Below, piece after piece: positions 7,148-54,194 of a stretch of 64,000 bases of DNA. The DNA is from Minisyncoccota bacterium (GTDB lineage Bacteria > Patescibacteriota > Minisyncoccia > Phycocordibacterales > UBA9973), in NCBI GenBank assembly GCA_028718635.1, contig JAQULK010000001.1:88626-152625 (forward strand), read 5' to 3'. The translations under genes were made by a program, and so were the position numbers. Below the pieces are notes generated by a model, which was given only the letters and a program-made list of their open reading frames with translations, did not search any database and was not told the DNA's origin. Each line of letters opens with the position of its first letter. Within the stretch, counting starts at the first letter, position 1.

Positions 7148-7252
7148 CTTAGAAATATAACTTTTGAAGGGGTTTCGAGCGCGACGGCGCGAGAACTTCA
7201 GGATTTTTTTCACCAGAAAAAAATCCGTACCGAAAAAAGTTTATATTTTAAG
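7148..7252. repeat. ~105-bp inverted-repeat-bounded element (family D, copy 1)
   Basis: Shares core GGGGTTTCGAGCGCGACGGCGCGAGAACTTCAGGA...TCCGTACCG with 18395..18507. Ends are AT-rich inverted repeats. Internal hairpin GGATTTTTTTCACCAGAAAAAAATCC. Confidence 0.6.
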
Positions 7253-8748: not shown

Positions 8749-8752
8749 AAAT

Positions 8753-18394: not shown

Positions 18395-18507
18395 AGAAGT
18401 TTGGAAAATAGTTTTCGCAGGGGTTTCGAGCGCGACGGCGCGAGAACTTCAGGAATTTTTAAGCTTCAAAAATTCCGTACCGGAGAAAACTTATTTTCCA
18501 AACTTCT
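18395..18507. repeat. family D element, copy 2
   Basis: 22-bp inverted repeats AGAAGTTTGGAAAATAGTTTTC / GAAAACTTATTTTCCAAACTTCT. Core identical to copy 1. Abuts the rpsO stop codon. Confidence 0.65.
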
Positions 18508-24543: not shown

Positions 24544-25863
24544 CTAATATACAACAATATCTAATTCTTTTTTAAGAGATTCATTTATCCATCTGAATTT
24601 TGCCCAGCGTTTGTAAACCTTTTTAGTTATATAGACATATTTTCCATTTTTTTTTCTTTTTCTAATTATGGGGGAATCAGTCTCTTCTATTAATTCATGC
24701 TTAATTTCCTTTATACTTATCCCCGATTTTATATGTGCATCAAAAACAAACTTTTCAAATATATCTTCAGGGCATCCTCCATCTAAGCGAGTGCGAGCAT
24801 TAACAAATTTCTTTACATCATATATGTTATGATCCATTCCTCCTTCTTCATTTTTATTGCTTGGGTCTACGAGTTGCATTTCAAACTGCCCGCCGTGAGA
24901 AGAAGAATGTAATTTGCCTGTTATAAATATTGCTTCAAATTTTTCATCTTTGGGAGCATTTGATATTTTTATTTTCCCAAATAATTTTTTCATTTGTGAT
25001 GTTGAAAAAAAAGACTTGTTTTCAATTTTTATATCAGTCGCCTTCATTGTTTTAGTGAGCCACTCATATAATTCAGGCAATAATTTTACTGCTTGGTCTT
25101 TTTCTATGGTTATTCTTGAAGCTATGCCATCTTTCAATGCAGCTTTCGCGTCTGAATCTGGCCTTGTGAGAAACTTAAGAATTATTTTTTCAAAATCCTT
25201 TGCTCGTGAGTTGATAGAACCTTCTAGATTACTGTCATTAATTGCGCGGAACCCTTGACCCGTTTCATTGTGATATTTACCGGAAAAAACAAGCGGGGTG
25301 TTTATTGTGGTCTCTCCCTCCGAAGGGGAAGAAACGAGAGCCCCCTCAAAATCTTCAGTGATTTTTTTTAACAACTGACTGTCATTTCTTAACGCCTCAT
25401 AGGTCGCTATCGTAGTCTTAACAATACGGCAATATTTTATTGATTGACTCAAACCTTCTTTGTCACCGGTCAACTTTGTTTTTTCTAAAATTTTAAAAAT
25501 ATCTTCTTTGGATTTTATAGAATCTACTCCTAAAAATAATTCTTTTTCAGAATATTTTAATGTGTCTCTTAAAAAATTCTTAGTTTGCTGAAAGGCGTAA
25601 TTTAAAAGAAAATATTTATCGCGAGATTCTGGGGATTTTCCATTGTCTAAAATAATTTTTGGATCAATCCCTGTTTCTTTTCTAATCCATTCGAGCATGC
25701 CTTCTCTTGTCAGACTGGGAGGAATTCCTGGAAAATCAATGGCTGTAGGCACAAATTCCTTGTCGACAGATTCCAGAGACCCATTCATTACGGCTTCCAT
25801 TAAAGCAAATTTCTTTTCTGGATTTTTGTATATTTCTCTTACTGGAATGCCCTCTAATTTCAT
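24544..25863 (-). CDS. hypothetical protein
   Basis: 439 aa. No confidently recognised motif. Contains a GC-rich palindromic insertion around 25300..25345. Confidence 0.45.
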   Translation of the reverse strand: MKLEGIPVREIYKNPEKKFALMEAVMNGSLESVDKEFVPTAIDFPGIPPSLTREGMLEWIRKETGIDPKIILDNGKSPESRDKYFLLNYAFQQTKNFLRDTLKYSEKELFLGVDSIKSKEDIFKILEKTKLTGDKEGLSQSIKYCRIVKTTIATYEALRNDSQLLKKITEDFEGALVSSPSEGETTINTPLVFSGKYHNETGQGFRAINDSNLEGSINSRAKDFEKIILKFLTRPDSDAKAALKDGIASRITIEKDQAVKLLPELYEWLTKTMKATDIKIENKSFFSTSQMKKLFGKIKISNAPKDEKFEAIFITGKLHSSSHGGQFEMQLVDPSNKNEEGGMDHNIYDVKKFVNARTRLDGGCPEDIFEKFVFDAHIKSGISIKEIKHELIEETDSPIIRKRKKNGKYVYITKKVYKRWAKFRWINESLKKELDIVVY

Positions 25864-25911: not shown

Positions 25912-27594
25912 TTACTTCACTCCATGTTTCGTGTGTAGTTTTTTTACCTCTTCTTCTTCTAATTCTTCTTTTTTTTCTTTTCCGCGCAGACCGAGAGTTT
26001 TGAGTTCCGCATCCCCAAGCATATTTAAAGATTTTACCAATTCAGACAAATGTTCCACGGTATTTTTCTCCGGGGCATCCAGCACTTCTTCGAGCAACGC
26101 ATGCAAAATCCACCCCATCCGCGGTCCGGAAGTTATTCCGAGTTCTTTTATCATAAATTCTCCGTTGATTTTTAGCTGTCCGACAGAAATCGGATCCCTC
26201 AAAGCCTCCTCGATCATGGCAAAATATTTTCGAAGCCGATACGGGGCTTCTTTCTTTTTCATTCCCACCCTGTCGCACTCACGGACATCCATTAAAAGCC
26301 AAATATTTTCTTTGCCGACTTTTGTAATAATTCTTCGCACTGCCGAAAGTGTGATCAATTCCGTATCGGAAAAAAACATATGATTGCGCACAAGCTTGGA
26401 CACCAATTCAATTTCTTTTTTAGGAAATTTTAATCTCTCCATTATTTTTTTTGCCATTCGCGCCCCGACAACTTCATGCCCGTAAAAAGTAAATTTCTTT
26501 TTAGCTTTTAAAGACGAAGACGGGGAAATAAATTTGCTTTCGCGGGGTGTCTCGCAGGCTGACGAGCCGAGAGGCAGCGCTGTGCGAGCACGCACAGACA
26601 GCGACCCCGAGAAAGCAGAATTTATTTCCCCGTCTTGTTTCCCTGCAAGTCTTCTAGCTCGCGGTTTCCCAATATCATGAAAAAGCGCTGCGAGCCTTAT
26701 TTCTAAAGACCAATTCTTGTTCGCTGCATGTTGCAATGCAAGTAATGAATGATTCCAAACATCATAAATATGCTCCCCCCCTTGTTCACAATCCACGCCT
26801 TCGAGTAATTCAGGAATTATATTTTTTAACAAATTAAATTTCTGAAGCATTAGCACTCCAGAAGAAGCATTGGCACTAGTTGTTATTTTTACAAATTCAT
26901 CTCGGATTCTTTCCTCAGAAATTTTTTTTATTAATTCCGAATTTTTCAAAATACTTTCCGTTGTTTCTTGCGCAATAAAAAAATTAAGTTGGCAAGAGAA
27001 ACGCACCGCGCGCAACATCCGAAGAGCATCTTCGGCAAAGCGGTCATCTGGATCCCCTACCGCTTTTAACGTCTTGTCCTTAATGTCCTTTATGCCGTCA
27101 AACAAATCTACGAGGTGTCCTTTAGGGCTTAAGGCCATTGCATTGACTGTAAAATCACGTCTCTTGAGGTCATCCTCTAACTTATCACTGAATTTTACCT
27201 CATCAGGATGCCGAAAATCGCTGTATTTTGCCTCTGTTCTATATGGAGTAACTTCAATTATGAAATTATGGGATGTTTCACGAATAACGTCTTGTATTTC
27301 CCCCTCTCCTTTACAAGGAGAGGGTTGGGGTGAGGTTCCCAATGTTTCACGGGAAACAACCACTGCGACCGTTCCAAACGTATTTTCATATACAGTCTTC
27401 TCAAAAAGCCCTATTATTTGTTCCGGTTTTGCATTCGTCGTGACATCCCAGTCGTTTGGTATTTTATCCATTAAAAGATCTCGAACACACCCGCCAACTA
27501 AATATGCCTCAAATCCGGCCTTTTCGAGCGTATTTGTTACATGTGAAACTTCTTTGGGGATTTTGGATATTAAGTTTTTAGTTATTGAATCCAC
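25912..27594 (-). CDS. cca: CCA-adding tRNA nucleotidyltransferase with HD domain, carrying two in-frame palindromic insertions
   Basis: GGCVRDLLM and RRDFTVNAMA (polymerase head). HD motif LFHDIGKP. Insertions at about 27296..27345 and 26518..26625. Confidence 0.85.
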   Translation of the reverse strand: MDSITKNLISKIPKEVSHVTNTLEKAGFEAYLVGGCVRDLLMDKIPNDWDVTTNAKPEQIIGLFEKTVYENTFGTVAVVVSRETLGTSPQPSPCKGEGEIQDVIRETSHNFIIEVTPYRTEAKYSDFRHPDEVKFSDKLEDDLKRRDFTVNAMALSPKGHLVDLFDGIKDIKDKTLKAVGDPDDRFAEDALRMLRAVRFSCQLNFFIAQETTESILKNSELIKKISEERIRDEFVKITTSANASSGVLMLQKFNLLKNIIPELLEGVDCEQGGEHIYDVWNHSLLALQHAANKNWSLEIRLAALFHDIGKPRARRLAGKQDGEINSAFSGSLSVRARTALPLGSSACETPRESKFISPSSSLKAKKKFTFYGHEVVGARMAKKIMERLKFPKKEIELVSKLVRNHMFFSDTELITLSAVRRIITKVGKENIWLLMDVRECDRVGMKKKEAPYRLRKYFAMIEEALRDPISVGQLKINGEFMIKELGITSGPRMGWILHALLEEVLDAPEKNTVEHLSELVKSLNMLGDAELKTLGLRGKEKKEELEEEEVKKLHTKHGVK

Positions 27595-30729: not shown

Positions 30730-30918
30730 GATTTCCTTTTCTAGCCTTTTAAAATAAGGGTAGAATCACAGGACGACCAATAGGTTCTGTAAACAAAAGG
30801 TTCTCACGATGTTACTATCTTCTCTGGAATTCAGTCAACTTGTACTATACCTCTCTTCAGAACTATGTTTTAAGGATAGTTCAAAAACAGCCAAAAGTCA
30901 ATTTAATGGAAAATTAAT

Positions 30919-31290
30919 GTGGATAACCCCCACACCTTTTGTTTTATACCTTCAGGTCATATAATGATTATTATGTATTATATATATGTTCTAAAAAGCA
31001 TAAAAGATGATAAATTATATATCGGTTCGACTAATGACCTGAAGCGAAGACTTTCGGAACACAACAATGGATTTAATCGTTCAACAAAAGCTAGGCGACC
31101 ATTTGAACTTCGCTATTATGAAGCTTGTGCCAATGAACATGATGCTAGAACTAGAGAATATAATTTAAAAAAAGATGGAAAAGCGCTTGGGCAACTAAAA
31201 AGAAGGATTTCCGAAAGTCTTAAATAAATCCCCACAACCTATTTGGATAGGTGTGGGGATAAAACGAAAGGTGTGGGGGATAACCCTTTT
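30919..31290. mobile_element. GIY-YIG gene bounded by inverted repeats (family B: TGTGGATAACCCCCACACCTTT / AAAGGTGTGGGGGATAACC)
   Basis: Inverted repeats at 30921..30942 and 31270..31290 enclose one small GIY-YIG ORF. A solo derivative lies at 61068..61216. Confidence 0.6.
30964..31227 (+). CDS. small GIY-YIG nuclease-family protein
   Basis: YYIYVLKS...KLYIGSTNDLKRRLSEHN pattern. Start placed after the inverted repeat. Confidence 0.65.
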   Translation: MIIMYYIYVLKSIKDDKLYIGSTNDLKRRLSEHNNGFNRSTKARRPFELRYYEACANEHDARTREYNLKKDGKALGQLKRRISESLK

Positions 31291-33733: not shown

Positions 33734-35809
33734 GTGGATATAGAAGAAAAACATCTAAAAGGTCTAAATAGTGAGCAAAAAGAAGCGGCGCTTCATATGA
33801 AGGGACCGCTTTTGATTATTGCCGGAGCGGGAGCTGGGAAAACAAAAACGATTACGCACAGAATTGTAAATCTTATAAAAAACGGCGTGTCTCCCGATAA
33901 AATTTTGGCAGTGACCTTCACTAATAAGGCCGCTAAAGAAATGCGAGAGAGAATTATTTTAGAAATTAATAAAAACGCAAAAGGTCAAGAAAAAATTCCT
34001 TTCGTTTCCACTTTTCATTCTCTGGGAGTTTATATAATAAAAGAAAACGCCCGACTGCTCGGACTGACGAGATATTTTACTATTTTAGACGAAGGAGACG
34101 CGACCACTCTTATAAAAAATATTTTAAAAGAGCTTAGCATAGACCCGAAGCAATATGATCCAAAAAAAATAAAAAATATAATCTCGCGGGAAAAAGGAAA
34201 ATTTACAAATCTAACGGATTATATGGAGAAAGCCCTCTCCTTCGGGGAGGGTTGGGAGGGGTCTCTGGGTAAAATTACAGCTCAAGTTTGGAATTTGTAT
34301 GAAAAACAAAAAATGAAAGAGAATTCTTTAGACTTCGATGATCTGCTCTTAAAAGCGGTAAAACTACTGAAAGAAAACGAGGAAATTAGAAAAATATATC
34401 AAGAAAAATGGGAATATATCCACATTGATGAATATCAGGACACGAACGAAGCGCAATATTTGATGTCTAAATTACTTTCCGAAAAAAGTGGAAATATTTG
34501 CGTAGTCGGGGATGCCGATCAAAATATATATTCTTGGCGCGGAGCAAATTTGAAAAACATTCTGAATTTTGAAAAAGATTACCCGAATACAAAAATAATT
34601 TTGTTGGAACAAAATTACAGGTCTACAAAAAATATTCTAGAGGCGGCAAATGAAGTAATTAAGAAAAATAAATATAGGCCGGATAAAAATTTGTTTACGA
34701 AAAACATTGAAGGCGAAAAAATAGGCTTCTATGAAGCCCTAGACGAAACCGATGAAGCTGAATTCGTCGCCACAAAGATTATGGAGATACTAGACAGCGG
34801 GGCAGACTTGCTTTTTCGGGGTGTCTCGCAGGCTGACGAGCCGAGAGGCAGCGCTGTGCGAGCACGCACAGACAGCGACCCCGCAAAAGCAGAGTCTGCC
34901 CCGCTGTCTGAAATAGCCGTTTTGTATCGCGCAAATTTTCAATCGCGGGCGCTCGAAGAAGCGATGCTTCGGTACAATATTCCTTACCAAGTTTTAGGGG
35001 TTAAATTTTTTGAAAGAAAGGAAATAAAAGACACTCTCGTTTATTTGCGTGCAGCTCTCAATCCCGATAGCCTGTCTGATATAAAAAGGATCATTAATTT
35101 CCCATCGAGAGGCATTGGAAAAGTAACCTTGATGAAAATCTTTGCCGGCCAAAGAGAAACCCTGCCGGTAAAAATGCAAATAAAAATTAATAGTTTCTAT
35201 GAAACATTGGAAGAGATAAAGGAGAAAATAAATGATTTAAAAACAAGCGATCTCATAAAATTCGTAATAAAAAAGTCCGGAATTGAAACAGAACTTTCCT
35301 CTGGCACTGAAGAAGATATGGAAAGATTAGAAAACATCAAAGAGCTCGCCACCCTTGCGCTCAAATATGACAATCTAAAAAATGGAGCGGGTATAGAAAA
35401 ACTTTTAGAAGATGCCTCGCTTGCTTCAGATCAAGACTCTTTAATAATAAATCAAGAAAAGAAAGAAATAAAAAATGCGGTAAAATTAATGACAGTACAT
35501 GCTTCAAAAGGCCTTGAATTTGAATATGTTTTTGTTGTTGGATTAGAAGACGGGCTTTTTCCGCACGAGAGAATGGGAGACAGCCCAGCCTCCGCACAAG
35601 GCTTCGGCGAGACGCAGGAGGAAGAAAGAAGGCTTTTTTATGTGGCACTTACCCGCGCAAGGAGAAAATTATTTTTATCATTTGCGAATTTCCGCACTAT
35701 TTTCGGTTCGCGCAACATCAACGCTCCTTCAGAATTTATTTCTGATATTCCAGCAGATTTATTTGAAAGGGAAGGCGAAGATAGCGGGATAAAAACAATT
35801 TATTTATAA
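33734..35809 (+). CDS. uvrD: UvrD/PcrA-family ATP-dependent DNA helicase with two in-frame palindromic insertions
   Basis: Motif I AGAGAGKTKTITHR, DEYQDTN, and motifs V/VI. Insertions at about 34228..34268 and 34800..34905. Confidence 0.85.
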   Translation: MDIEEKHLKGLNSEQKEAALHMKGPLLIIAGAGAGKTKTITHRIVNLIKNGVSPDKILAVTFTNKAAKEMRERIILEINKNAKGQEKIPFVSTFHSLGVYIIKENARLLGLTRYFTILDEGDATTLIKNILKELSIDPKQYDPKKIKNIISREKGKFTNLTDYMEKALSFGEGWEGSLGKITAQVWNLYEKQKMKENSLDFDDLLLKAVKLLKENEEIRKIYQEKWEYIHIDEYQDTNEAQYLMSKLLSEKSGNICVVGDADQNIYSWRGANLKNILNFEKDYPNTKIILLEQNYRSTKNILEAANEVIKKNKYRPDKNLFTKNIEGEKIGFYEALDETDEAEFVATKIMEILDSGADLLFRGVSQADEPRGSAVRARTDSDPAKAESAPLSEIAVLYRANFQSRALEEAMLRYNIPYQVLGVKFFERKEIKDTLVYLRAALNPDSLSDIKRIINFPSRGIGKVTLMKIFAGQRETLPVKMQIKINSFYETLEEIKEKINDLKTSDLIKFVIKKSGIETELSSGTEEDMERLENIKELATLALKYDNLKNGAGIEKLLEDASLASDQDSLIINQEKKEIKNAVKLMTVHASKGLEFEYVFVVGLEDGLFPHERMGDSPASAQGFGETQEEERRLFYVALTRARRKLFLSFANFRTIFGSRNINAPSEFISDIPADLFEREGEDSGIKTIYL
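34800..34905. repeat. ~100-bp GC-rich palindromic element shared with cca (26518..26625)
   Basis: Core GGGGTGTCTCGCAGGCTGACGAGCCGAGAGGCAGCGCTGTGCGAGCACGCACAGACAGCGACCCC is identical at both loci. Short inverted flanks. In-frame in both host genes. Confidence 0.8.
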
Positions 35810-35813
35810 ATAT

Positions 35814-36695
35814 ATGATACACAAAGCAAAAAAATCCCTAGGGCAAAACTTTTTAAAATCTGAAATGGCCTTAAAAAAAATTGTTGAAGCCGGGGAAGTA
35901 AAAAAGAGCGATATAGTTTTAGAAATAGGACCAGGCAAAGGAGCGCTCACGTCTAAACTTTTAGAAAAAGCAAAAACTGTAATTGCGGTAGAGAAGGACC
36001 GCGAACTTTTTGAATTTTTAAAAGAAAAATTTAAAAAAGAAATAAAATCAAAATCTCTCCTCTTGATACAGGGAGATATTTTGGAGTTCGACCCCCTCTT
36101 AATCTCCCCCTTGGCAGGGGGAGAGGGAACAATTAACTACAAAATTATCGCCAACATTCCTTACAATATTACTGGTGCAATTTTGAAAAAGTTTTTGACG
36201 GCAAAAAATCAACCGGAGAGGATGATTTTAATGGTCCAGCACGAAGTGGCTAAACGCATAATGGCTCGCGACCCACGCCACGGCGGGGCAGGTGGCAAAG
36301 AAAGCATTCTTTCAATTTCGGTCAAAGCTTACGGTGAACCAAAGATGATTATGAAGGTGAATAAAAGATATTTTTCTCCTGCACCAAAAGTTGACTCAGC
36401 TATAATTGCGATAAAAAATATTTCTAGGGAAAGATTCACCTTATCCCAAAATTCACCTCACCCCAACCCTCTCCTTATTAAGGAGAGGGAGACATTTGAA
36501 GAAAAATTCTGGGAAATAGTAAAGACTGGTTTTGCACATAAAAGGAAAAAACTCTCCAGCAATCTAAAGAATGTTTGCCAAAGTGTTTGCCAAAGCAAGG
36601 CTTTGGCAAACTTGGGAAATAAAAGAGCTGAGGATTTAACTCTTAACGACTGGATTATGCTGACTAAAGGGGAGATGAGCCGACCATCGGAGTAA
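35814..36695 (+). CDS. rsmA: 16S rRNA (adenine1518/1519-N6)-dimethyltransferase
   Basis: LGQNFL and EIGPGKGALT motifs. Two in-frame GC-rich palindromic insertions encoding DPLLISPLAGGEGT and NSPHPNPLLIKERET. Confidence 0.85.
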   Translation: MIHKAKKSLGQNFLKSEMALKKIVEAGEVKKSDIVLEIGPGKGALTSKLLEKAKTVIAVEKDRELFEFLKEKFKKEIKSKSLLLIQGDILEFDPLLISPLAGGEGTINYKIIANIPYNITGAILKKFLTAKNQPERMILMVQHEVAKRIMARDPRHGGAGGKESILSISVKAYGEPKMIMKVNKRYFSPAPKVDSAIIAIKNISRERFTLSQNSPHPNPLLIKERETFEEKFWEIVKTGFAHKRKKLSSNLKNVCQSVCQSKALANLGNKRAEDLTLNDWIMLTKGEMSRPSE

Positions 36696-43803: not shown

Positions 43804-44346
43804 ATGACTGAAAAATCAAAAAAATTAATACAAGAGGAAATGTTGAATCTGCCAAAAGAAGCGCAAGATGCCATCAATGCTTCAAATTGGGAAAAACAAT
43901 CTGAAGAAATTGGAAAAAAATACTTACTGAATGAGGATGAAATTTATACTTTTCAACTAGAAACAGCTTGTTTTTTACTTGGTCTTATTGATGAAGATCA
44001 ATACCAAAAAAATATCGAAGATGGCATAGGCACCAGTAAAGCTGAAGCAGAAAAAATATCTGAAGAAGTAATACAGAAAATACTTATTCCTATCAATGAT
44101 CTTTTTGTAAAAAATATTAAAAAAAGCGATAAGGTAAAAAACGCAACGGCTGAGCAAAATCTTAATTTTATTTTATCCGGCGGGGATTATACGGCGTTTT
44201 TGGATGTTCCTCCTCTCGTTGATAAGGAGGGGAATGAGGGGAGGTTCTTAACTAATTCAAATTCACCTCACCCCGACCCTCTCCTTAGTAAGGAGAGGGG
44301 GAATACTGAAGAAACAGTCTTACCAGCCTTTTTTATTAAAAAATAA
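43804..44346 (+). CDS. hypothetical protein (paralogue of the next gene)
   Basis: 180 aa. N-terminus similar to 44364..44957. Carries an in-frame palindromic insertion encoding SNSPHPDPLLSKERGN. Confidence 0.45.
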   Translation: MTEKSKKLIQEEMLNLPKEAQDAINASNWEKQSEEIGKKYLLNEDEIYTFQLETACFLLGLIDEDQYQKNIEDGIGTSKAEAEKISEEVIQKILIPINDLFVKNIKKSDKVKNATAEQNLNFILSGGDYTAFLDVPPLVDKEGNEGRFLTNSNSPHPDPLLSKERGNTEETVLPAFFIKK

Positions 44347-44978: not shown

Positions 44979-45258
44979 ATCCCGTTAGAGATCACTTATG
45001 TTTTATTACACATATATTTTAAAAAGTAAGAAGGACGGTAAAATTTACACTGGATATACGCAAGACCTACGGAAGCGCCTGAATCAGCATAATAAAGGTT
45101 TATCTACATATACGAAAGGACGAGGCCCATTTATTTTGATATACTATGAAGGGTGTCTATTAGAAAGTAAAGCGAAGTCGAGAGAATTATTTTTAAAATC
45201 GGGAATGGGCAAGCGTTATCTAAAAAATAGATTAGGCGCTTCCTATCTCTAACGGGAT
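44979..45258. mobile_element. GIY-YIG gene bounded by perfect 14-bp inverted repeats ATCCCGTTAGAGAT / ATCTCTAACGGGAT (family A archetype)
   Basis: The inverted repeats directly flank the 84-aa GIY-YIG ORF. Termini match the solo family A repeats. Confidence 0.7.
44998..45252 (+). CDS. small GIY-YIG nuclease-family protein
   Basis: YYTYILKSKKDGKIYTGYTQDLRKRLNQHN. Confidence 0.7.
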   Translation: MFYYTYILKSKKDGKIYTGYTQDLRKRLNQHNKGLSTYTKGRGPFILIYYEGCLLESKAKSRELFLKSGMGKRYLKNRLGASYL

Positions 45259-45721
45259 GCAATTCAAAGTTCCACAATTTTTAGACATTGAAGATAAAAT
45301 ATTCGGCCCTTTTACTTTTAGGGAATTTGTTTATTTAGCCGGCGGGGCAGGCTTGTGTTTTATTCTTTATAAATTGCTGGGTCTTATTTTAGGAATAATA
45401 CCCATTTTAGCTGTCGCGGGATTTTCGCTCGCTCTTACTTTTTACAAACCAAATAATAAACCATTTATTAATATAATAGAATCAGGTTTTAAGTATTTTA
45501 CCCAAAATAAACTTTATATTTGGAAGAAAAAAGCAAATAAAACCACCTCTTCCCCCGCCTTCTCCAAAGGAGAAGGAGCCCTCTCCTTCGGGGAGGGTTT
45601 GGGAGGGGTAAACAAAATTCAAATGATGCATCCAGGCAGTTCCCCGTTGAGTGGGAGCAAGTTACGAGACTTGGCTTGGAGTTTAGATGTGCTGGACTTG
45701 AGTAAGCAACAATCCCGTTAG
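45257..45721 (+). CDS. PrgI-family (VirB3-analogue) membrane protein
   Basis: MQFKVPQFLDIEDKIFGPFTFREFVYLAGGAG followed by two TM helices. Lies immediately upstream of VirB4. In-frame palindromic insertion near the C-terminus. Confidence 0.55.
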   Translation: MQFKVPQFLDIEDKIFGPFTFREFVYLAGGAGLCFILYKLLGLILGIIPILAVAGFSLALTFYKPNNKPFINIIESGFKYFTQNKLYIWKKKANKTTSSPAFSKGEGALSFGEGLGGVNKIQMMHPGSSPLSGSKLRDLAWSLDVLDLSKQQSR

Positions 45722-45833
45722 AAGCCGCGGTCGCAGTTTAAAAAATATAAATATGTTAAATAGAAAAATAAAAATTAATAGAATAACAAAGCATAATCAC
45801 GGTCTGTTGACCGCGACCTGCTTCTAACGGGAT
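45711..45833. repeat. family A element (GAAGC subtype)
   Basis: Left inverted repeat contains the TAG stop of the PrgI-like gene. Right inverted repeat ends ...TAACGGGATG, giving the ATG of the next ORF. Inverse-orientation copy at 61725..61805. Confidence 0.75.
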
Positions 45834-46470
45834 GGCCTTAAACGCAAAAGCAACTCAAGAATTTGTCCCGATCAAGGAAGTCCGCGATGGAATCGTTGTA
45901 TTAAAAAACGACGAACTGCGAGCTATTGTCCTAGCCAATTCTGTCAACTTAGCCTTAAAATCTTCCGACGAACAACAGGCAACAATAATGCAATTCCAAA
46001 ATTTTCTTAACACTTTGGATTTTTCTGTGCAAATATCGATTCAATCAAGAAGACTGGACATTAGACCGTATCTTTTGCTTTTGGAAAACAGAATCAAGGT
46101 GCAAAATGAGCCTCTTTTAAAATTACAAACCAAAGAATATATAGACTTCATCAGAAATTTTACTGACTCAGTGGCAATAATGACCAAAAACTTTTTTGTA
46201 GTAGTGCCTTACACTCACACTGCCTTAAAATCAGACTCTGGAATCTTGGATAAAATATTTTCTAGAAAAAATAAAGAAGAAATAAAAGCTGCCAAACAAA
46301 TAGCCTTTGAAGAAAAAAGATCCCAATTGGAAGAAAGAGTGGCGGTCATTCAGCAAGGACTCTCTAGTTGCGGTATAAATTCAGCGCAGCTCGGCACCGA
46401 AGAAGTAGTGGAAGTATTTTATAAGGTTTTCAATCCGGGAGAGATAGAAGGGAAGATTAAAGTAGAATAG
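45832..46470 (+). CDS. VirB4/TraE-type ATPase, N-terminal segment
   Basis: FVPIKEVRDGIVVLKND...NLALKSSDEQQATIMQFQNFLNTLDFSVQISIQ resembles Gram-positive VirB4 N-termini. Confidence 0.5.
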   Translation: MALNAKATQEFVPIKEVRDGIVVLKNDELRAIVLANSVNLALKSSDEQQATIMQFQNFLNTLDFSVQISIQSRRLDIRPYLLLLENRIKVQNEPLLKLQTKEYIDFIRNFTDSVAIMTKNFFVVVPYTHTALKSDSGILDKIFSRKNKEEIKAAKQIAFEEKRSQLEERVAVIQQGLSSCGINSAQLGTEEVVEVFYKVFNPGEIEGKIKVE

Positions 46471-46509
46471 CATCGAGCGCCTTAGGCTCTCTGAGAGCCT
46501 AAGGCGCTA

Positions 46510-48369
46510 ATGCAAAATAAAATGAGTATCTTAGAAAACATTAAAAAATTATTTGGAAAAGAAAAAAGAGACGATAATGAAGAAACACAAGCTTCTGTTT
46601 TGGCCGTCTTGCCGGAAAAGATCTATGAGTCTGCCAATCTTGAACTTCAAGATGTCATAGCGCCGTCAGCCTTAAAAATTGACCCGAAATCCATAAATTT
46701 AGGAAACAAAATCGCCCGTACTTTTTTTATAATATCTTATCCGAGATATTTAACAGATAATTGGTTTTCTCCGATAATCAATTTGGATAAAATTTTTGAT
46801 ATTTCAATATTCATCCACCCCATAGACACTTCTCTCATGTTGCGGCAATTCCAGAAAAAAGTGGCTGAAGTTCAAAGCCAGATAAGCGTCCGAGAAGCAA
46901 AAGGGATGGTACGCGACCCGATGCTGGACACTGCTTATGAAGATTTGGAAGGGCTTCGCAATAATCTGATCCAAGCGCAAGAAAAGATGTTCGATGTGGG
47001 AGTTTACATTACGATTTATGCAGATAATGAATTAGAGCTATTTAAAATTGAAAATGAAATAAAATCAATGCTCGAATCGAAGCTCATATACATCAAGCCG
47101 GCGCTTTTCCAGCAAGAAGAGGGTTTTAAAAGCGTTATTCCAATAGAAACAGACTTATTGAACATCCATCAAAAATTAAACTCTGAGCCTCTTTCTAGTG
47201 TTTTTCCATTTATTTCCTCTGATCTTACTTCCGACAAAGGAATACTTTACGGTATCAACAGAAATAACTCGTCCCTCGTTATTTTCGACCGGTTCAGCTT
47301 AGAGAATTATAACTCCGTGACCTTTGCTAAATCAGGTTCTGGAAAATCTTATGCGGCAAAATTAGAAATTTTAAGATCATTAATGTTTGACACTGATGTC
47401 ATCGTAATAGATCCAGAAAGAGAGTACGAATTTTTAGCTGAAACTGTCGGCGGACGCTATTTTAATATTTCACTTTCCTCAGATCACCATTTAAATCCCT
47501 TTGATTTGCCAATACCTCGTGAAGATGAAACAGTGGAGGATGTATTGCGTTCAAATATTATAAACTTAGTGGGGCTTTTCAGGCTGATGCTAGGCGGACT
47601 CACCCCGGAAGAAGATTCAATGGTGGACCGAGCTATTTCAGAAACTTATGCTATGAAAGACATCACCCCGGAATCAGATTTTTCAAACATCGAACCTCCT
47701 CTTCTTTCAGATTTCGAAATGGTGCTCTCTGGGATGGAAGGAAGCGATTCGGTCATCGCCAGACTGGCAAAATACACCCGAGGCTCTTGGTCAACCTTCT
47801 TAAATAGACCGTCTAATGTAGATATCAACAAAAAATTCGTGGTTTTTTCTGTCCGTGATATGGAAGACGAATTAAAACCGGTAGCCATGTATATCATAAT
47901 GCATTACATTTGGAATGCGATAAGAAAGAATCTTAAAAAAAGACTTCTCGTAGTGGACGAAGCCTGGTGGATGATGAAATCTGAAGATACGGCTTCATTT
48001 CTTTATTCAATCGCAAAAAGAGGCAGAAAATATTATTTAGGTCTTTCCACTATTACCCAAGACGCAGCTGACTTTATGAAATCTCCATATGGCGTACCAA
48101 TAATCACCAACTCTTCCATTCAACTTCTCTTGAAACAATCGCCTACCACTATTGATATTCTGCAAAAAACCTTCAACCTCACTGATGAGGAAAAATATTT
48201 GCTTCTAGAATCCGGACTAGGGGAGGGTATATTTTTCGCAGGATTAAAGCACGTCGCTATAAAAATAGTTTCTTCTTATACTGAGGACCAGATCATTACC
48301 TCTGATCCTTCGCAAATATTATTAAACAAAAAAGCCAGAGAGGAGCAGGAGGCGAAGGATATGGTATAA
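46510..48369 (+). CDS. VirB4/TraE-type type IV secretion ATPase (central and ATPase domains)
   Basis: YPRYLTDNWF...ISIFIHPID. Walker A AKSGSGKSY. Walker B LLVVDEAWWM. Confidence 0.8.
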   Translation: MQNKMSILENIKKLFGKEKRDDNEETQASVLAVLPEKIYESANLELQDVIAPSALKIDPKSINLGNKIARTFFIISYPRYLTDNWFSPIINLDKIFDISIFIHPIDTSLMLRQFQKKVAEVQSQISVREAKGMVRDPMLDTAYEDLEGLRNNLIQAQEKMFDVGVYITIYADNELELFKIENEIKSMLESKLIYIKPALFQQEEGFKSVIPIETDLLNIHQKLNSEPLSSVFPFISSDLTSDKGILYGINRNNSSLVIFDRFSLENYNSVTFAKSGSGKSYAAKLEILRSLMFDTDVIVIDPEREYEFLAETVGGRYFNISLSSDHHLNPFDLPIPREDETVEDVLRSNIINLVGLFRLMLGGLTPEEDSMVDRAISETYAMKDITPESDFSNIEPPLLSDFEMVLSGMEGSDSVIARLAKYTRGSWSTFLNRPSNVDINKKFVVFSVRDMEDELKPVAMYIIMHYIWNAIRKNLKKRLLVVDEAWWMMKSEDTASFLYSIAKRGRKYYLGLSTITQDAADFMKSPYGVPIITNSSIQLLLKQSPTTIDILQKTFNLTDEEKYLLLESGLGEGIFFAGLKHVAIKIVSSYTEDQIITSDPSQILLNKKAREEQEAKDMV

Positions 48370-48376
48370 TAAAACT

Positions 48377-49363
48377 ATGAGACTTAGGTTTTTAACATTA
48401 AATTTTCTTATAACAATCGCGATACTAGGAACTTTTTTACCGCTCGCCGCAAAAGCAGTTTCGTCGGATGATGTTTTAGTTAATGTGTCACCAGAAAATC
48501 CAGCCCCTGGTGAAAACGTAAATATTTCTTTAAAAAGCTATGTTAATAATTTAGACATAGTTTTAATATCTTGGTCAGTAAATGGCAAGAATGTTTCCTC
48601 TGGGATTGGCAAGAAATCTTTTTCTCTTAATGCACCAAGCGCTGGAGGGGAAACAAGCGTCATCGCCACTGCTTCCTTGCCAGATGGCGCAGTAGATACA
48701 AAGGTAATAATAAGACCCTCGGCAATGGTGTTGCTTTCCGAAGCATTGGATTCTTATACACCTCCGTTTTATAAAGGCAAAGCATTACCTTCGCCTGATA
48801 GTTTAGTAAAAGTAGTTGCCTTACCAGAAATAAAATCTGGCTCTAATTTTATAAATCCTAAAAATCTGACTTACGCCTGGCAAAAAGATTACACCAGCAA
48901 CCAAGATGGTTCCGGTTATGGAAAAAATACTTTTACTTATGTAAATGATTATCTTGAAAACTCAAACAACATCGGAGTGACAGCCGGAACCACTGATCAG
49001 AAATTTTCCTCAACAGTAAATATAGACGTAAGAATGAAAGAACCAAAAATTATTTTTTACAAAAATGACGCCAAGCTGGGAACGATTTGGGAACAAGCAC
49101 TCGCTGATGGATATAAAATTCTCGGAAATGAAATCATTGAGGCAGCGCCGTATTTTTTCTCACCTCGCGACATCAGAGTTCCATTAGTCACTTTTGATTG
49201 GTTTATAAATAGCCAAACAATAAATGTGCCTAGTTATAGGAAAAATATACTGCCACTTCAAGCACAAGTGGGAACTTCCGGAACTTCTAAAATAAGATTA
49301 GAAATTAATAATGCCGATAAAATTTTTGAAAGCGCCGTTAAGGAAATCAATGTAAATTTTTAA
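48377..49363 (+). CDS. secreted hypothetical protein of the T4SS-like cluster
   Basis: 328 aa with signal peptide. No recognised motif. Confidence 0.45.
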   Translation: MRLRFLTLNFLITIAILGTFLPLAAKAVSSDDVLVNVSPENPAPGENVNISLKSYVNNLDIVLISWSVNGKNVSSGIGKKSFSLNAPSAGGETSVIATASLPDGAVDTKVIIRPSAMVLLSEALDSYTPPFYKGKALPSPDSLVKVVALPEIKSGSNFINPKNLTYAWQKDYTSNQDGSGYGKNTFTYVNDYLENSNNIGVTAGTTDQKFSSTVNIDVRMKEPKIIFYKNDAKLGTIWEQALADGYKILGNEIIEAAPYFFSPRDIRVPLVTFDWFINSQTINVPSYRKNILPLQAQVGTSGTSKIRLEINNADKIFESAVKEINVNF

Positions 49364-50299
49364 ATGATGAAGAAAGATATATTTAAAAAAATAATAGCCT
49401 TAACATATCTAACATTTTTATTATTTGGATTTCTTACTCCTGCTCGCCATATTTTCGCAGAAGATACTCCCAAAGATGCAACCTATCAACTTTTAGCTCC
49501 GCTTCCTGATCCAGAAGGAGGAAATGATATTGAGATTAATGATCCTACACATCCTGAAGCCCTAAGTGATTATTTAAACGTAATGATAAAGCTCATTATA
49601 GGCATCTGCGCTGTCTTGGCAGTGGTAATGATCGTAATGGGTGGCATTGAATATATGACGAGCGAATTGATTTCAAGTAAAGCAGCGGGTAAAGACAGAA
49701 TTATGCATGCAATTTTTGGTCTTATTTTAGCCCTTGGCGCTTGGACGATTCTCAATACCATAAATCCTAAATTACTCGATAGTAGTTTATCGAGTTTAAA
49801 AAATGTGACAGTGGAGGTAACTGCACAAAATTTTGCACTCTCTCCTTCAACGTATATTGTTCCCCTCGGTGGAAAAGGACAAGCAAGTGGTACAAACTGT
49901 GATGAAAATGCAGTTGCTGCGGCAAACGCCGGTCTTAGTAATGCTCAAATACATACACTCGCTTGCATAGGTGGAATAGAAAGCGGTTGTAAATCAGTCA
50001 AAAACTACGCTTGGGGGAATGGGTCCTCTGCGTATGGACCTTTCCAGATAACATTACAAGGGAATGCTGGATGTTTTACAAGCCAGGTTTGCCGCGACGC
50101 CGGAGCACCGCCTTATCCGCCTGGTTGTGCCGCCGGATTCCAAAATGGTAATCCTAAACCTGGTTCTCCGATTGTGGAACAATGCAAGAACGCTGCTAAT
50201 AATTTTAATTGCAGTGTCTCGGCTGCCGCATGTTTAATAAAAAAGAGACCGAACTATGGCGACTGGAACGCGAACAGCAATCTTTCAAAGTGCCTATAA
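49364..50299 (+). CDS. pilin-like two-helix membrane segment (VirB2-like) fused to a Cys-rich lytic-transglycosylase-like domain
   Basis: Signal sequence. Hydrophobic hairpin IIGICAVLAVVMIVMGG...IFGLILALGAWTILN. C-terminal IESG...AYGPFQI resembles the SLT ES...GLMQ motifs. Confidence 0.4.
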   Translation: MMKKDIFKKIIALTYLTFLLFGFLTPARHIFAEDTPKDATYQLLAPLPDPEGGNDIEINDPTHPEALSDYLNVMIKLIIGICAVLAVVMIVMGGIEYMTSELISSKAAGKDRIMHAIFGLILALGAWTILNTINPKLLDSSLSSLKNVTVEVTAQNFALSPSTYIVPLGGKGQASGTNCDENAVAAANAGLSNAQIHTLACIGGIESGCKSVKNYAWGNGSSAYGPFQITLQGNAGCFTSQVCRDAGAPPYPPGCAAGFQNGNPKPGSPIVEQCKNAANNFNCSVSAAACLIKKRPNYGDWNANSNLSKCL

Positions 50300-50314: not shown

Positions 50315-51715
50315 ATGTCAAAAAGAAATTTTATACTTTTAATAATAGTTGTAATAATAGGAATAATTGCATTATTCGGATATTTTTATTTCAACCCAGG
50401 AACCAACACGCCAGGGGAGGACAACACGGGCACAAATTTTATTTCACAATTTAACCCATTTGGAAAAAACACCACAAAACCTCCTGCCGACACAACAACC
50501 CCAATTGATATTTCTGGAGATCAACCAAATACCACCTCTGCAGATATAGATGCAAAATTGAAAAAAGTTTCAAGCATGCCAATTGCAGGGTTTACTGTAT
50601 TTTCTAAAGAAAGATTAAAGGATGTGACTGTTCCTCCCCTCCTTTCGGAGGAGGGGGCAGGGGGTGGTGATAACTCTGCACCACCTCGCCCTTCGGGCTC
50701 TCCTCCTTCAAAAGGAGGAGAGAGAACCAAACCAACTCCGCCCCAAACTGAATTTATGCCAGCTTTGAGGTATGTGGAAAGAGCCACAGGAAATATTTAC
50801 CAAACCTTTGCAGACAAAATAGAAGAGAAGCAATTTTCGACAACAATGATACCTCAAGTGTATGAAGCATTTTTTGGAAACAAAGGAAACTCAGTAATCA
50901 TGAGATACTTGAAACCGGATGGCAGAACAATCATAACTTTTGTGGGAACTTTGCCAAAAGAGGTTCTTGGCGCAGATAGCACCGTTGGTAATGAAATAAA
51001 AGGAGTATTTCTTCCAGAAAATACAAAGGATGTGAGTTTGTCAAGCGATTCCAAAAGTCTCTTTTATATGTTTTTAAGTGGAAAAACTCAAGCAGATGGA
51101 GTAACTGGCGCTACTTTTAATTTATTAAATAATAAAAAGATTCAAGTTTTTAATTCTCCTTTCACAGAATGGTTGTCCTCATTCCTAACCAGCAAGATGA
51201 TTACTTTTACCACTAAACCTTCTGCTCAAATTCCGGGATATATGTACGTTATGGATCCGACAAATAAAAATTATAATTTTCATAAAATATTGGGCGGCAT
51301 AAATGGGCTTACCACCCTCATTAGCCCTAATGGAAAACTGGCTCTTTATAGCGATAACAATTTATCTCTTAATATTTTTCACTCGAACACAAAGGTTTCC
51401 GATACGTTGGGAGTAAAAACATTGGCGGAAAAATGTGTTTGGAATAAAACTAGTGAAGTTATTTATTGCGGAGTGCCAAAATCTTATGGAAACGGTCAAT
51501 ACCCGGACAGTTGGTATCAAGGAGAAGTTTCTTTTTCGGATCAAATTTGGAAAATAGATGTTAAAACTGGAAATGCGACTATGATTGCGGATCCAGCCGA
51601 CATAAACGGCGGAGAAGATATTGATAGCACTAAATTAGCGCTGGACGATGGAGAAAACTATTTATTTTTTGTAAACAAAAAGGATTCTTTCCTATGGGAG
51701 TTGAATTTAAAATAA
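50315..51715 (+). CDS. membrane-anchored hypothetical protein (Pro/Thr-rich linker, beta-rich C-terminal domain)
   Basis: 466 aa. N-terminal TM segment. In-frame palindromic insertion encoding PPLLSEEGAGGGD. Confidence 0.45.
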   Translation: MSKRNFILLIIVVIIGIIALFGYFYFNPGTNTPGEDNTGTNFISQFNPFGKNTTKPPADTTTPIDISGDQPNTTSADIDAKLKKVSSMPIAGFTVFSKERLKDVTVPPLLSEEGAGGGDNSAPPRPSGSPPSKGGERTKPTPPQTEFMPALRYVERATGNIYQTFADKIEEKQFSTTMIPQVYEAFFGNKGNSVIMRYLKPDGRTIITFVGTLPKEVLGADSTVGNEIKGVFLPENTKDVSLSSDSKSLFYMFLSGKTQADGVTGATFNLLNNKKIQVFNSPFTEWLSSFLTSKMITFTTKPSAQIPGYMYVMDPTNKNYNFHKILGGINGLTTLISPNGKLALYSDNNLSLNIFHSNTKVSDTLGVKTLAEKCVWNKTSEVIYCGVPKSYGNGQYPDSWYQGEVSFSDQIWKIDVKTGNATMIADPADINGGEDIDSTKLALDDGENYLFFVNKKDSFLWELNLK

Positions 51716-51740: not shown

Positions 51741-51832
51741 TATTTCCTCTCCCCCTTAATAAGGGGGAGACTGTGAGGGGGTTCTTAATTAATTCACCTC
51801 ACCCCAGCCCTCTCCTTATTAAGGAGAGGGGG
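51741..51832. repeat. compound GC-rich palindromic element (family C)
   Basis: CTCCCCCTTAATAAGGGGGAG, TTCACCTCACCCC and CCCTCTCCTTATTAAGGAGAGGG. Same compound as the insertion in 43804..44346. Ends at the jag stop codon. Confidence 0.7.
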
Positions 51833-52357
51833 CTAAATTCCACCCACGTATTTGATCACCACTCGGCGATCGCGCCCGAAACCTATGGATTCGGTTTTAA
51901 GGTCATTTGATTCAGATAAAAATTCATGAACGATTCTGCGTTCGAAGGCTGACATTGGGTCAACTTCTATATTAGACTTAAAATATCTCGCTCTTTCAGA
52001 CATCATATGGGCTATTGCACGGATATTCTCAACATGTTTTTTTTGAAAACCGTTTATATCTATAATAACAGACCCTCCCCCAACCCCTCCCTTGGCAGGG
52101 AGGGGGGTCCCTTCTCCCCCTGCTAAGGGGGAGTGCCCGAAGGGCGGGGGGGTCTTAGCTTCTATTATTCTATGAACAAGGTGGCTTAACGCGTGCAAAC
52201 CCTCACCATCACGCCCAATAAAGAAATGTGGCTCGACAACCTCTATGGAAACCCATACATTTTTATGCCCATCATCAACTATTGAAATTCCATTTAGTTT
52301 TACTGTAGTTTTTTCAATTAAGTCTTTTATTAAATTTTGAATCTCTTCTTTTTCCAT
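51833..52357 (-). CDS. jag: Jag/KhpB (KH + R3H) RNA-binding protein
   Basis: R3H motif ERRIVHEFL. In-frame double-palindrome insertion encoding PPPFGHSPLAGGEGTPLPAKGGVGGGS. Confidence 0.8.
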   Translation of the reverse strand: MEKEEIQNLIKDLIEKTTVKLNGISIVDDGHKNVWVSIEVVEPHFFIGRDGEGLHALSHLVHRIIEAKTPPPFGHSPLAGGEGTPLPAKGGVGGGSVIIDINGFQKKHVENIRAIAHMMSERARYFKSNIEVDPMSAFERRIVHEFLSESNDLKTESIGFGRDRRVVIKYVGGI

Positions 52358-54006: not shown

Positions 54007-54117
54007 TACTAGAGTCTATAATAAAAATTATAAAAATACAACCCCCTAATCCCCCTTATCAAGGGGACTTACAAAATTTTTCCTCCCTTGACAAGGGGAG
54101 GTCAGGAGGGGTTGAGT

Positions 54118-54137
54118 TTTATCCACAGTTTATCAAC
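54118..54137. promoter_or_regulatory. two tandem DnaA boxes (TTATCCACA then TTATCAACA)
   Basis: Perfect consensus 9-mer plus a 1-mismatch copy 2 bp downstream. Sits between rpmH and dnaA beside a GC-rich compound palindrome at 54035..54112. Confidence 0.6.
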
Positions 54138-54194
54138 AGAGTTAATAAGCTTTCAAAGATGTCTTCTATTTTAGAAATAGTATAATATGGAACT

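Follow-up and report, generated by a model that had tools for sequence, protein, structure and literature searches.

Elements of the BoxC or PIT kind have been known since the 1990s, and to our knowledge no one has found what they do or how they spread. They are the closest known kind to a family of short GC-rich repeats that we describe here from a Minisyncoccota bacterium (Patescibacteriota), in a stretch of 64,000 nucleotides of contig JAQULK010000001.1 (assembly GCA_028718635.1, positions 88,626 to 152,625) that is called the window below. The base composition of the window is 36-37% G+C, and its coding share is about 89%.

BoxC, PIT (potential intrastrand triplex) and TMECO are names for one element of Escherichia coli (Hoyne/Maher 2000; Holder et al. 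2015, PMC4666352). The TMECO consensus is 5'-CCCTCNCCC N3-6 GGGNGAGGG N3 GGGNGAGGG-3', and the motif forms a class II purine-motif intrastrand triplex, very stable in vitro by nuclear magnetic resonance and circular dichroism, with 18 imino signals (PMC4666352). Its copies favour neither strand, have no transposase linked to them, are often arranged as inverted pairs and go together with local variability of the genome; PIT elements have neither promoter nor terminator activity in E. coli (PMC4666352). TMECO is abundant in some Enterobacteria and Cyanobacteria, and strain MG1655 carries 23 copies in 4.6 Mb, always intergenic (PMC4666352).

The repeats of the window form a real family, in which a hairpin arm and an adjoining tail covary as mirror images. 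One subfamily is BoxC-like, and the copies within open reading frames (ORFs) are loop insertions. The family probably consists of triplex motifs of the BoxC/PIT/TMECO type, selfish or neutral and dependent on their folded structure, which would land regardless of coding and be kept in loops.

Hairpins with a mirror-image tail

The first-pass annotation of the window, made from its letters, had reported GC-rich palindromes in many genes and in some intergenic positions. They are indeed present there, far above chance: 49 raw matches (exact hairpins with a stem of at least 7 and an arm GC of at least 0.6) fall at about 20 sites, against 0-6 raw matches per shuffle in 20 shuffles. Strict units, composed of a hairpin and a mirror tail, number 12 in the window and 0 in each of 50 dinucleotide-type shuffles; the count rises to 14 once mini-hairpin linkers (see below) are allowed. 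The compared set comprises the window and 80 related loci, 20 of which have one unit or more. It contains 64 units. The density of the repeat is about 0.2 per kb.

On the G-rich strand, a unit reads from 5' to 3' as a pyrimidine arm (8-10 nt, C and T only), a loop (3-7 nt), a purine arm, a linker and a purine tail. The purine arm is the Watson-Crick complement of the pyrimidine arm, and the tail (8 nt) is the mirror image of the purine arm, not its complement. This mirror-image tail goes beyond what the first-pass annotation had described. Units are 29-44 nt long and composites about 90 nt; over the compared set the loops have 3-9 nt, usually with TT at the start and AA at the end. The polarity is uniform on both strands, the pyrimidine-only arm coming first (CCCTCTCC, TCTCCCCC, CCCCTCCC, CCCCTCCT, CCTTCTCC), and purine-first hairpins of this kind were found on neither strand among the family members. 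Examples of mirror tails are CCCCCTCC-cag-CCTCCCCC...GGGGGAGG, CCCCTCCT-caa-TCCTCCCC, CCCTCCCC-caa-CCCCTCCC, CCTCTTCC-cccg-CCTTCTCC and CCCCCTCT-taa-TCTCCCCC.

The tail was analysed in 78 pyrimidine-first hairpins, gathered blind to their flanks. A perfect mirror tail accompanies 47 of them and a perfect direct-repeat tail five. For the 55 arms that are not their own mirror image, the mirror fits better in 39 cases and the direct repeat in three, with 13 ties; this comparison rules out the alternative hairpin in which the tail is a direct repeat. The mirror match is 0.828, against 0.706 +/- 0.013 when arms are re-paired with the flanks of other units (about nine standard deviations), and the maximum re-paired match over 1000 shuffles was 0.748. 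When arm types are counted once, a perfect mirror tail is found in 12 of the 30 asymmetric types and a perfect direct tail in two. In each of the seven asymmetric arm types with several copies, the majority of copies bear a mirror tail and none a direct one. The tail lies on the left of 31 hairpins, on the right of 22, on both sides of one and on neither side of 24, and 53 of the 78 are therefore one-tailed.

An arm C faces a tail C in 329 of 335 cases; the partners of an arm T are T (54 cases), A (43) and C (one). Seen from the G-rich strand, G is opposite G-C and A or T opposite A-T, with the third segment antiparallel. The triads G.G-C, A.A-T and T.A-T constitute the purine-motif triplex rule (PMC4666352). 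Judged from the sequences, the predicted triads of the units match this rule for an intrastrand DNA triple helix.

Polymerases make complements, not mirror images; a mirror relation held across many arm variants is therefore not a by-product of copying. The mirror covariation points to selection on a fold that would use Hoogsteen-type pairing. Covariation is routine support for RNA helices, and we found no report in the literature of such support for a genomic DNA triplex. The many arm variants provide natural covariation evidence that Hoogsteen pairing, not the hairpin alone, is maintained; in E. coli the covariation is hidden because the BoxC stems are nearly self-mirror.

The linker has 3 nt in 37 of the 64 units (usually TTG, CTG or CTA). 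There are 12 units with a linker of 10-14 nt, most of these linkers being mini-hairpins (tGCCCgaaGGGC, tGTCCgaaGGAC, tGGCTaaaaAGCC, tGTCgaaGAC) whose stems covary (GCCC/GGGC, GTCC/GGAC, GGCT/AGCC, GTC/GAC). A linker folded in this manner would again place the tail beside the arm. Composites consist of a unit, an AT-rich spacer (TTCTTAAnTAATT) and an inverted unit; this layout is kept across genomes, and the two ends often differ in arm sequence. Watson-Crick pairing of a tail with the partner arm was also considered for the composites and gave no general rule, being true for one related locus (L022) and not for the composites of the window.

The C-rich strand is the sense strand of the host gene in 28 cases and the G-rich strand in 24, and the units of the window are oriented six against six. 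This lack of orientation bias argues for a DNA-level rather than an RNA-level feature, as does the report that purine-motif triplexes do not form in RNA (literature cited in PMC4666352). Rfam searches of the whole window at gathering thresholds returned only tRNAs; with relaxed thresholds, two element-rich stretches gave no family match, only meaningless sub-threshold hits to microRNA-type hairpins. Four G-runs of at least 3 with short loops, the G-quadruplex (G4) pattern, are found at 34244-34261 (GGGGAGGGTTGGGAGGGG at 34244), at 45590-45608 and on the complement of 52073-52092, and the G-runs of subfamily A, with only 2-4, fall outside this pattern. A G-quadruplex needs no mirror symmetry and does not account for the mirror covariation.

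Copies inside genes and neighbouring repeats

Nine of the 12 strict units of the window are in frame within ORFs (called from 90 codons upwards): two in ksgA, one each in uvrD, cca and jag, two in a PrgI-like ORF and two in ORFs of no known identity. In the compared set, 52 of the 64 units lie within ORFs, which is roughly the expectation for random placement in an 89%-coding genome. The gene names of the first-pass annotation agree with the Pfam domains, which are RrnaAD (ksgA, 35814..36695), UvrD (uvrD, 33734..35809), PolyA_pol+HD (cca, 25912..27594, minus strand), R3H (jag, 51833..52357, minus strand), PrgI (45257..45721), RnpA and RuvC; YidC, DnaA, DnaN and RuvB are also recognized in the window. 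The copies are listed below.

27302..27335, plus strand (gene on minus): cca unit, CCCTCTCC-tttacaa-GGAGAGGG-ttg-GGGTGAGG; translated SPQPSPCKGEG.
34233..34261, plus strand: uvrD unit, CCCTCTCC-ttc-GGGGAGGG-tt-GGGAGGGG; translated ALSFGEGWEG.
36091..36123, minus strand: ksgA unit, hot spot 1; on the plus strand, tail CCCCCTCT-taa-TCTCCCCCT-tggc-AGGGGGAGA; translated PLLISPLAGG.
36455-36488, or 36449..36492 with its AATTCA extension, minus strand: ksgA unit, hot spot 2, AATTCA-CCTCACCC-caa-CCCTCTCCTT-att-AAGGAGAGGG; translated NSPHPNPLLIKERE; repeat family D2.
44205..44303: composite in ORF 43804..44346, with a degenerate unit, an AT-rich spacer and an inverted complete unit (44265-44298); translated PPLVDKEGNEGRFLTNSNSPHPDPLLSKERG; aligns with the intergenic composite of the window and with composites in two related loci.
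45546..45608: PrgI-like ORF, two abutting opposed units, 45546-45576 on minus and 45579-45608 on plus; translated SSPAFSKGEGALSFGEGLGG.
50631..50726: composite in ORF 50315..51715, unit 50636-50668 (plus) and unit 50680-50720 (minus), the latter with the mini-hairpin linker GCCCttcGGGC.
51743..51832: intergenic composite at gene ends, between convergent genes; unit 51748-51781 (plus), spacer TTCTTAATTAATT, unit 51796-51829 (minus).
52072..52153: two units in jag (gene on minus), 52072-52104 (minus) and 52114-52153 (plus, mini-hairpin linker tGCCCgaaGGGC); translated HSPLAGGEGTPLPAKGGVGGG.
54041..54112: intergenic pair upstream of dnaA, in which unit 54041-54067 is degenerate, with arms of 7 nt and one bulge, and unit 54082-54112 (plus) is complete; downstream of the pair, at distances of 7 and 18 nt, are the DnaA boxes TTATCCACA (54119-54127) and TTATCAACA (54130-54138).
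25311..25347: GC-rich compound palindrome, weak and degenerate, within ORF 24544..25863; its membership is doubtful.

Both ksgA copies fall inside the interval 36085-36495 singled out by the first-pass annotation. The copies it had placed in uvrD, cca, jag (double), the PrgI-like ORF, 43804..44346 and 50315..51715 were located, as were the intergenic ones at 51748-51829 and 54041-54112, the second adjoining the DnaA boxes; its peptides (PLLIKERG, SPLAGGEG and others) are correct by translation. For 24544..25863 the palindrome was found, but it is a degenerate compound at best. The two other hosts proposed, ruvC (~61373) and rnpA (~53630), contain only short, weak inverted repeats with no features of the family. 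The Pfam PrgI match covers residues 9-85 only, and both copies in this ORF are therefore in a C-terminal extension. This ORF belongs to a type IV secretion-like cluster (45257-50299; PrgI, a TraG/VirB4-type P-loop ATPase and a type IV secretion pilin), whose small ORFs contain several of the repeat copies.

The ksgA gene was taken from 80 related genomes for comparison of the insertion sites, and the KsgA alignment contains 38 orthologues whose identity with the window protein, counted over aligned positions, is 67-82%. There are three hot spots, with basal lengths of 11-13 residues (after 'DILEF'), five ('VARDG') and 12 ('KIFEENKINEEK'), at which the window protein has 18, 12 and 26 residues. 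Close orthologues (at least 70% identical in the core) are without the inserts; others carry different GC-rich inserts at the same three spots, from other subfamilies or in other orientations, encoding peptides such as PLLISPLAGG, SPQPSPYKGEGG, PLLVEEGAGGGDS...PPQKGGEG and NSPLEEYPLGGGG. The alignment gap at hot spot 2 is 11 residues long in the KsgA of Bacillus subtilis, and the one at the uvrD copy is seven residues long in PcrA; a solved CCA enzyme has two residues where the window protein has 30 (residues 83-112). On these alignments the in-ORF segments are lineage-specific insertions, not ancestral protein segments. The proposal of the first-pass annotation that they were inserted is borne out, since the orthologues without palindromes are also without the peptides.

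In the AlphaFold model of the window KsgA the mean pLDDT is 83, with 57 at residues 151-160 and 53 at residues 211-220 (hot spot 2). The insert of hot spot 1 is the loop between model strands E82-86 and E109-114, and all three inserts are placed by the model between core secondary-structure elements. The suggestion that the inserted peptides map to loops thus agrees with the model, in which they occupy loops or low-confidence segments; the inserts of KsgA, UvrD and the CCA enzyme fall in loops. In the listed close relatives KsgA is between 254 and 345 residues long, and the repeats account for much of such length variation among orthologous housekeeping proteins.

Gly, Pro, Leu, Ser and Glu make up 73% of the 90 encoded insert residues. 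The same DNA is read in all three frames and in both orientations, so the recurring peptides are by-products. An example of a junction-spanning peptide predicted from the open frame is ...EFDPLLISPLAGGEGTINYK... A stop-free composition was considered as the cause of tolerance and has only a weak effect (4.1 of six frames open, versus 3.3 for random segments), because AT-rich loops such as TTATTAA carry stops. A literature search for palindromic in-frame insertions in Patescibacteria, the candidate phyla radiation or Parcubacteria found none. Such elements are able to colonize essential coding sequence, and they are of relevance to annotation, alignment-based phylogeny and structure prediction of candidate-phyla proteins.

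Other repeats are found near these copies. Hot spot 3 of ksgA (36268-36296) contains 21 nt of GC-rich inserted DNA, GACCCACGCCACGGCGGGGCAGGTGGC (PRHGGAGG), which does not belong to the triplex type. This variant and others (PSPSSERRGG, GSNPSTPLRV) are found again at the spot in orthologues, and most orthologues have the 5-residue basal state. A separate GC-rich element of 86 nt is present in frame in cca (26534-26619) and uvrD (34808-34893), genes of opposite orientation; the two copies are 95% identical, and the element also occurs in five or more of the related loci. Each is flanked by a perfect, copy-specific inverted repeat of 16-17 nt (AAGACGGGGAAATAAAT/ATTTATTTCCCCGTCTT versus AGACAGCGGGGCAGAC/GTCTGCCCCGCTGTCT). 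The left flank in uvrD encodes ancestral residues, and the right flank therefore appears to be the target copied in inverted form. In other genomes, flank complementarity is near-perfect (10-16 nt, different sequences) in several of the orthologous copies and short or absent in others. The DNA fold of the element has -36 kcal/mol (z = -7); it has no Rfam match, and a hammerhead-like reading of CTGACGAG within it was dropped for want of Rfam support.

The palindromes of a third family span about 54 nt (TCCCGTTAGAGGC...GCCTCTAACGGGA); at least 10 copies are present, most of them at the boundaries of genes (5330, 13957, 14446, 45711, 45808, 52355, 52454, 53437, 61722, 61765 and 62843; repeat families D1, D3, I3-I8, I13 and I17). 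An intergenic repeat of 61 nt (D9), containing the GC-rich palindrome GGGGTTTCGAGCGCGACGGCGCGAGAACTTC, is present at 7149-7209 and 18400-18460 with 87% identity. At 30918-31285 an inverted repeat of 30 nt (87% complementary; I19) encloses a small GIY-YIG nuclease ORF (30919..31227) and contains the DnaA-box-like sites TGTGGATAA and TGTGGGGATAA. These sites, together with a flip in gene orientation and the proximity of the cumulative GC skew minimum (~28 kb), suggest that the replication origin may be at this locus rather than beside dnaA at 54 kb. A low-GC island at 7957-10327 (27.6% in the 8-10 kb bin) codes for a TdeIII-type restriction endonuclease and an N6/N4 DNA methyltransferase.

Spread and competing explanations

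Several copies are close to identical. Those at 36449, 44259 and 51790 (D2) have in common the AATTCA extension, the tail, the arms and most of the loop, and D2 copies in different genes are identical at 40 of 42 nt. Copy-like identity between dispersed sites is also found in families D11, I7, I9 and I10, the uvrD and PrgI copies (D11) being 90% identical, and the composite type of ORF 50315..51715 is met again in other genomes, at hot spot 2 of their ksgA. The related loci L022 and L023 have 93% DNA identity over 10.9 kb and only five indels of at least 9 nt, two or three of which are GC-rich palindromic elements in ksgA. In one case a full composite in L022 corresponds to a 21-nt remnant-like piece in L023, and the exact insertion boundaries are unreadable there. 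A 45-nt insert at the 5' end of ksgA (L022 9971-10015), with the palindrome ACCCGTACACGGGT, is also present in one and absent from the other of these two genomes and is found in six further relatives; it holds in addition a second, diverged copy (RAKKAL) of the KAKKSLG-coding target. The patchy distribution among related genomes puts a mobilizing factor within reach of phyletic profiling; candidates would be small nucleases, like those encoded by the GIY-YIG and UPF0102 genes of the window, as well as helicases and Y1 transposases.

The exact subfamily-A pattern is found in eight viral contigs. Triplex-type units number four in one viral contig and seven in another; within a contig they all point the same way and most lie between ORFs, in contrast with the unbiased orientation in the bacterial loci. 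In the first of these contigs the units are followed by T-rich runs.

The family is probably explained as follows. The G-rich strand, when single-stranded during replication, repair or recombination, would fold into the hairpin, and the tail would occupy the major groove as a third strand, antiparallel and with reverse-Hoogsteen pairing (G.G-C, A.A-T, T.A-T); two units inverted around the AT-rich spacer would give the composite of about 90 nt. The DNA would be selfish or neutral, with its propagation, or its persistence against decay, tied to the folded structure, and the three segments would covary because of this dependence. Landing would be blind to coding, and most copies would be in ORFs because about 89% of the genome is coding. 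Selection would then retain the in-frame, stop-free copies in surface loops, where they would be translated as peptides rich in Gly, Pro, Leu, Ser and Glu without a function of their own.

A number of observations weigh against this explanation. The triplex of the window units is a predicted one, the triplex that is stable in vitro being that of the E. coli motif, and in vivo dimethyl sulfate footprinting in E. coli showed no stable triplex (PMC4666352). No transposase or integrase was detected in the 64-kb window (Pfam, 55 ORFs). Flanking direct repeats are not enriched: repeats of at least 8 nt occur at three of 60 clusters, versus 5.9% of controls. The nearest relative is only about 73-82% identical in KsgA and too distant to fix exact insertion boundaries. 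Copies within an arm type are related by descent, and copy-level statistics overstate their independence. The low complexity of the units (C/T and G/A only) eases similarity to BoxC by convergence, the G-rich strand could also form G-quadruplexes, and we infer the translation of the inserts from open frames only.

A wider proposal, based on the three-way covariation of arm, complement and mirror tail over many diverged subfamilies, is that triple-helix formation is itself the selected property of a mobile DNA family of Enterobacteria, Cyanobacteria and Patescibacteria, whose members would be 'triplex elements' defined by structure and copied by structure-specific machinery. We regard this as possible, though rather doubtful. 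If true, the essential proteins of the streamlined Patescibacteria would be supplied continuously with new surface loops.

The composites might alternatively be classical MITEs (miniature inverted-repeat transposable elements), that is, non-autonomous transposons of about 90 nt whose terminal inverted repeats are bound by a distant transposase; solo units would represent halves left by decay, and the tail would be a mirror image only incidentally. Two inverted ends around an AT-rich centre, the conservation of this layout across genomes and the near-identical dispersed copies would all fit. The cca copy is moreover flanked on both sides by the 10-bp direct repeat CGTGAAACAT (gene strand, 27273-27351), the element and one repeat adding up to 69 nt or 23 codons, which is suggestive of a target duplication; direct repeats of 10 bp are found at 0.75% of random positions and at no other copy, and the cca case alone is not significant. 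Most copies are solo, however, and only one hairpin has tails on both sides against the 53 one-tailed ones. The frequently different arm sequences of the two composite ends and the control-level frequency of flanking repeats also speak against a MITE, as does the lack of a transposase both in the 64 kb and near the E. coli copies (PMC4666352). The mirror covariation has no role in a terminal-inverted-repeat model, and we consider this explanation unlikely.

Still less likely is a signal beneficial to the host, in which a hairpin, G-quadruplex or triplex is kept for a role in the pausing of replication, transcription or translation, in termination or in processing. The pair adjoining the DnaA boxes, the composite at the ends of convergent genes (51743-51832), the G4-type runs such as GGGGAGGGTTGGGAGGGG and the single-orientation copies of the two viral contigs would be compatible with such a role. 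It would not predict the balanced orientation in genes (28:24), nor positions that are not conserved in orthologous genes and vary between presence and absence among close relatives, nor the occupation of one loop by different subfamilies and orientations. PIT has no promoter or terminator activity in E. coli (PMC4666352), and the mirror symmetry is more than a G4 requires.

A local de novo origin, in which slippage, template switching or biased repair would have produced the palindromes independently in permissive loops and without copy-and-paste, is very unlikely. The same three loops of KsgA have been struck repeatedly, and the perfect inverted flank copies of the neighbouring 86-nt family suggest template switching in these genomes; but template switching gives complements, not mirror repeats. 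Neither does a local origin explain why, from one gene to another, D2 copies agree at 40 of 42 nt, the unconstrained loop and the AATTCA extension being part of the match, nor why the same composite is found in unrelated genes of different genomes. That the peptides are selected protein modules, PLLIKERG, SPLAGGEG and the like being functional motifs that recur across proteins and orthologues, is close to refuted, as identical DNA occurs between genes as well, the peptides from its three frames and two orientations are unrelated to one another, they are Gly/Pro/Ser-rich with low model confidence, and close orthologues lack them. None of these four alternatives accounts for the mirror covariation.

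Comparison with known systems

The Rickettsia palindromic elements (RPE), reportedly described by Ogata et al. in 2000 and 2002, are palindromic elements of 100-150 bp, found in intergenic DNA as well as in frame within essential genes, whose proteins then carry extra surface segments and keep their function; their arms are not homopurine/homopyrimidine, and they have no mirror-repeat third segment. The usual view of them is that they are MITEs. Like them, the copies of the window are both intergenic and in frame in conserved proteins (KsgA, UvrD, the CCA enzyme), at surface positions. The window units differ from the RPE, as described, in their length of 29-44 nt, their homopurine/homopyrimidine arms, their mirror tail and their lineage. 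The parallel drawn by the first-pass annotation therefore holds for the tolerance of in-frame copies but not for the element, whose anatomy and sequence match E. coli BoxC/PIT/TMECO: the resemblance would be one of outcome.

REP/REPIN sequences, mobilized by RAYT transposases, are extragenic and carry a GTAG or CGTC tag at one end (PMC3733652, PMC3116915). They too are short GC-rich hairpins, often in inverted pairs and in many dispersed copies. In the compared set, however, GTAG/CTAC lies near only two of the 64 units (chance level) and CGTC/GACG near none, and most copies are intragenic. No gene of the RAYT (IS200/IS605-like) type was detected in the 64-kb window. Of the features of MITEs, inverted ends are present in the composites and flanking direct repeats are not enriched; the relatives are too distant to reveal recent insertions. 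The units resemble H-DNA in that tail and arm form a homopurine/homopyrimidine mirror repeat with a short spacer. Here, unlike in H-DNA, the middle segment is common to the mirror repeat and the inverted repeat; because it is shared, all three triplex strands would come from one DNA strand, with no supercoil-driven unpairing.

Small dispersed repeats of cyanobacteria were reportedly treated by Elhai in 2008. High copy numbers of GC-rich triplex motifs are found in Microcystis, Nostoc and Anabaena (Holder 2015, PMC4666352), and the window is similar to these in its triplex-type GC-rich motifs, their many copies and an AT-leaning genome. Similar sequences are also present on plasmids of Nostoc, Dolichospermum and Pseudanabaena, some under annotated genes, and on plasmids or chromids of Azospirillum, Klebsiella, Methylobacterium and others.

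The closest system is BoxC/PIT, and the family assignment shifts from RPE to an intragenic BoxC/PIT type. By blastn the cca copy of the window is 85-89% identical over 36-40 nt to E. coli BoxC copies in 484 genomes (E. coli CCCCTCGCCCTTTCAGGGAGAGGGTTGGGGTGAGGG versus window CCCCTCTCCTTTACAAGGAGAGGGTTGGGGTGAGG). Both have a C-rich stem, a loop of 3-6 nt, a G-rich stem, a 3-nt loop and then another G-rich stem, and they agree in the T.A-T position of the tail (GGGTGAGG). Inverted pairs occur in both, the composites of about 90 nt corresponding to inverted TMECO pairs, and both show no strand bias, no linked transposase, a patchy distribution among relatives and local turnover.

Differences from BoxC are also evident. 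The stems here have 8 nt, G/C-rich with A-T closing pairs, and those of E. coli have nine: the strict TMECO expression matches only the two E. coli control loci and no window copy, and four window copies match once its stems are shortened to 7 nt each. Arm variants are numerous here, whereas the E. coli stem is nearly self-mirror, and some copies have mini-hairpin linkers. The density of about 0.2 per kb compares with 0.005 per kb in MG1655 (from its 23 copies), roughly 40-fold less. Most copies are in frame inside ORFs (9/12 in the window, 52/64 in the compared set), whereas those of MG1655 are reported as always intergenic, and the host belongs to the Patescibacteria. The three-segment triplex architecture is already known, having been published for E. 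coli (PMC4666352). New are the occurrence in Patescibacteria, the density about 40 times that of E. coli, the in-frame colonization of essential genes at recurrent hot spots, and the covariation of arm and tail over at least seven arm types.

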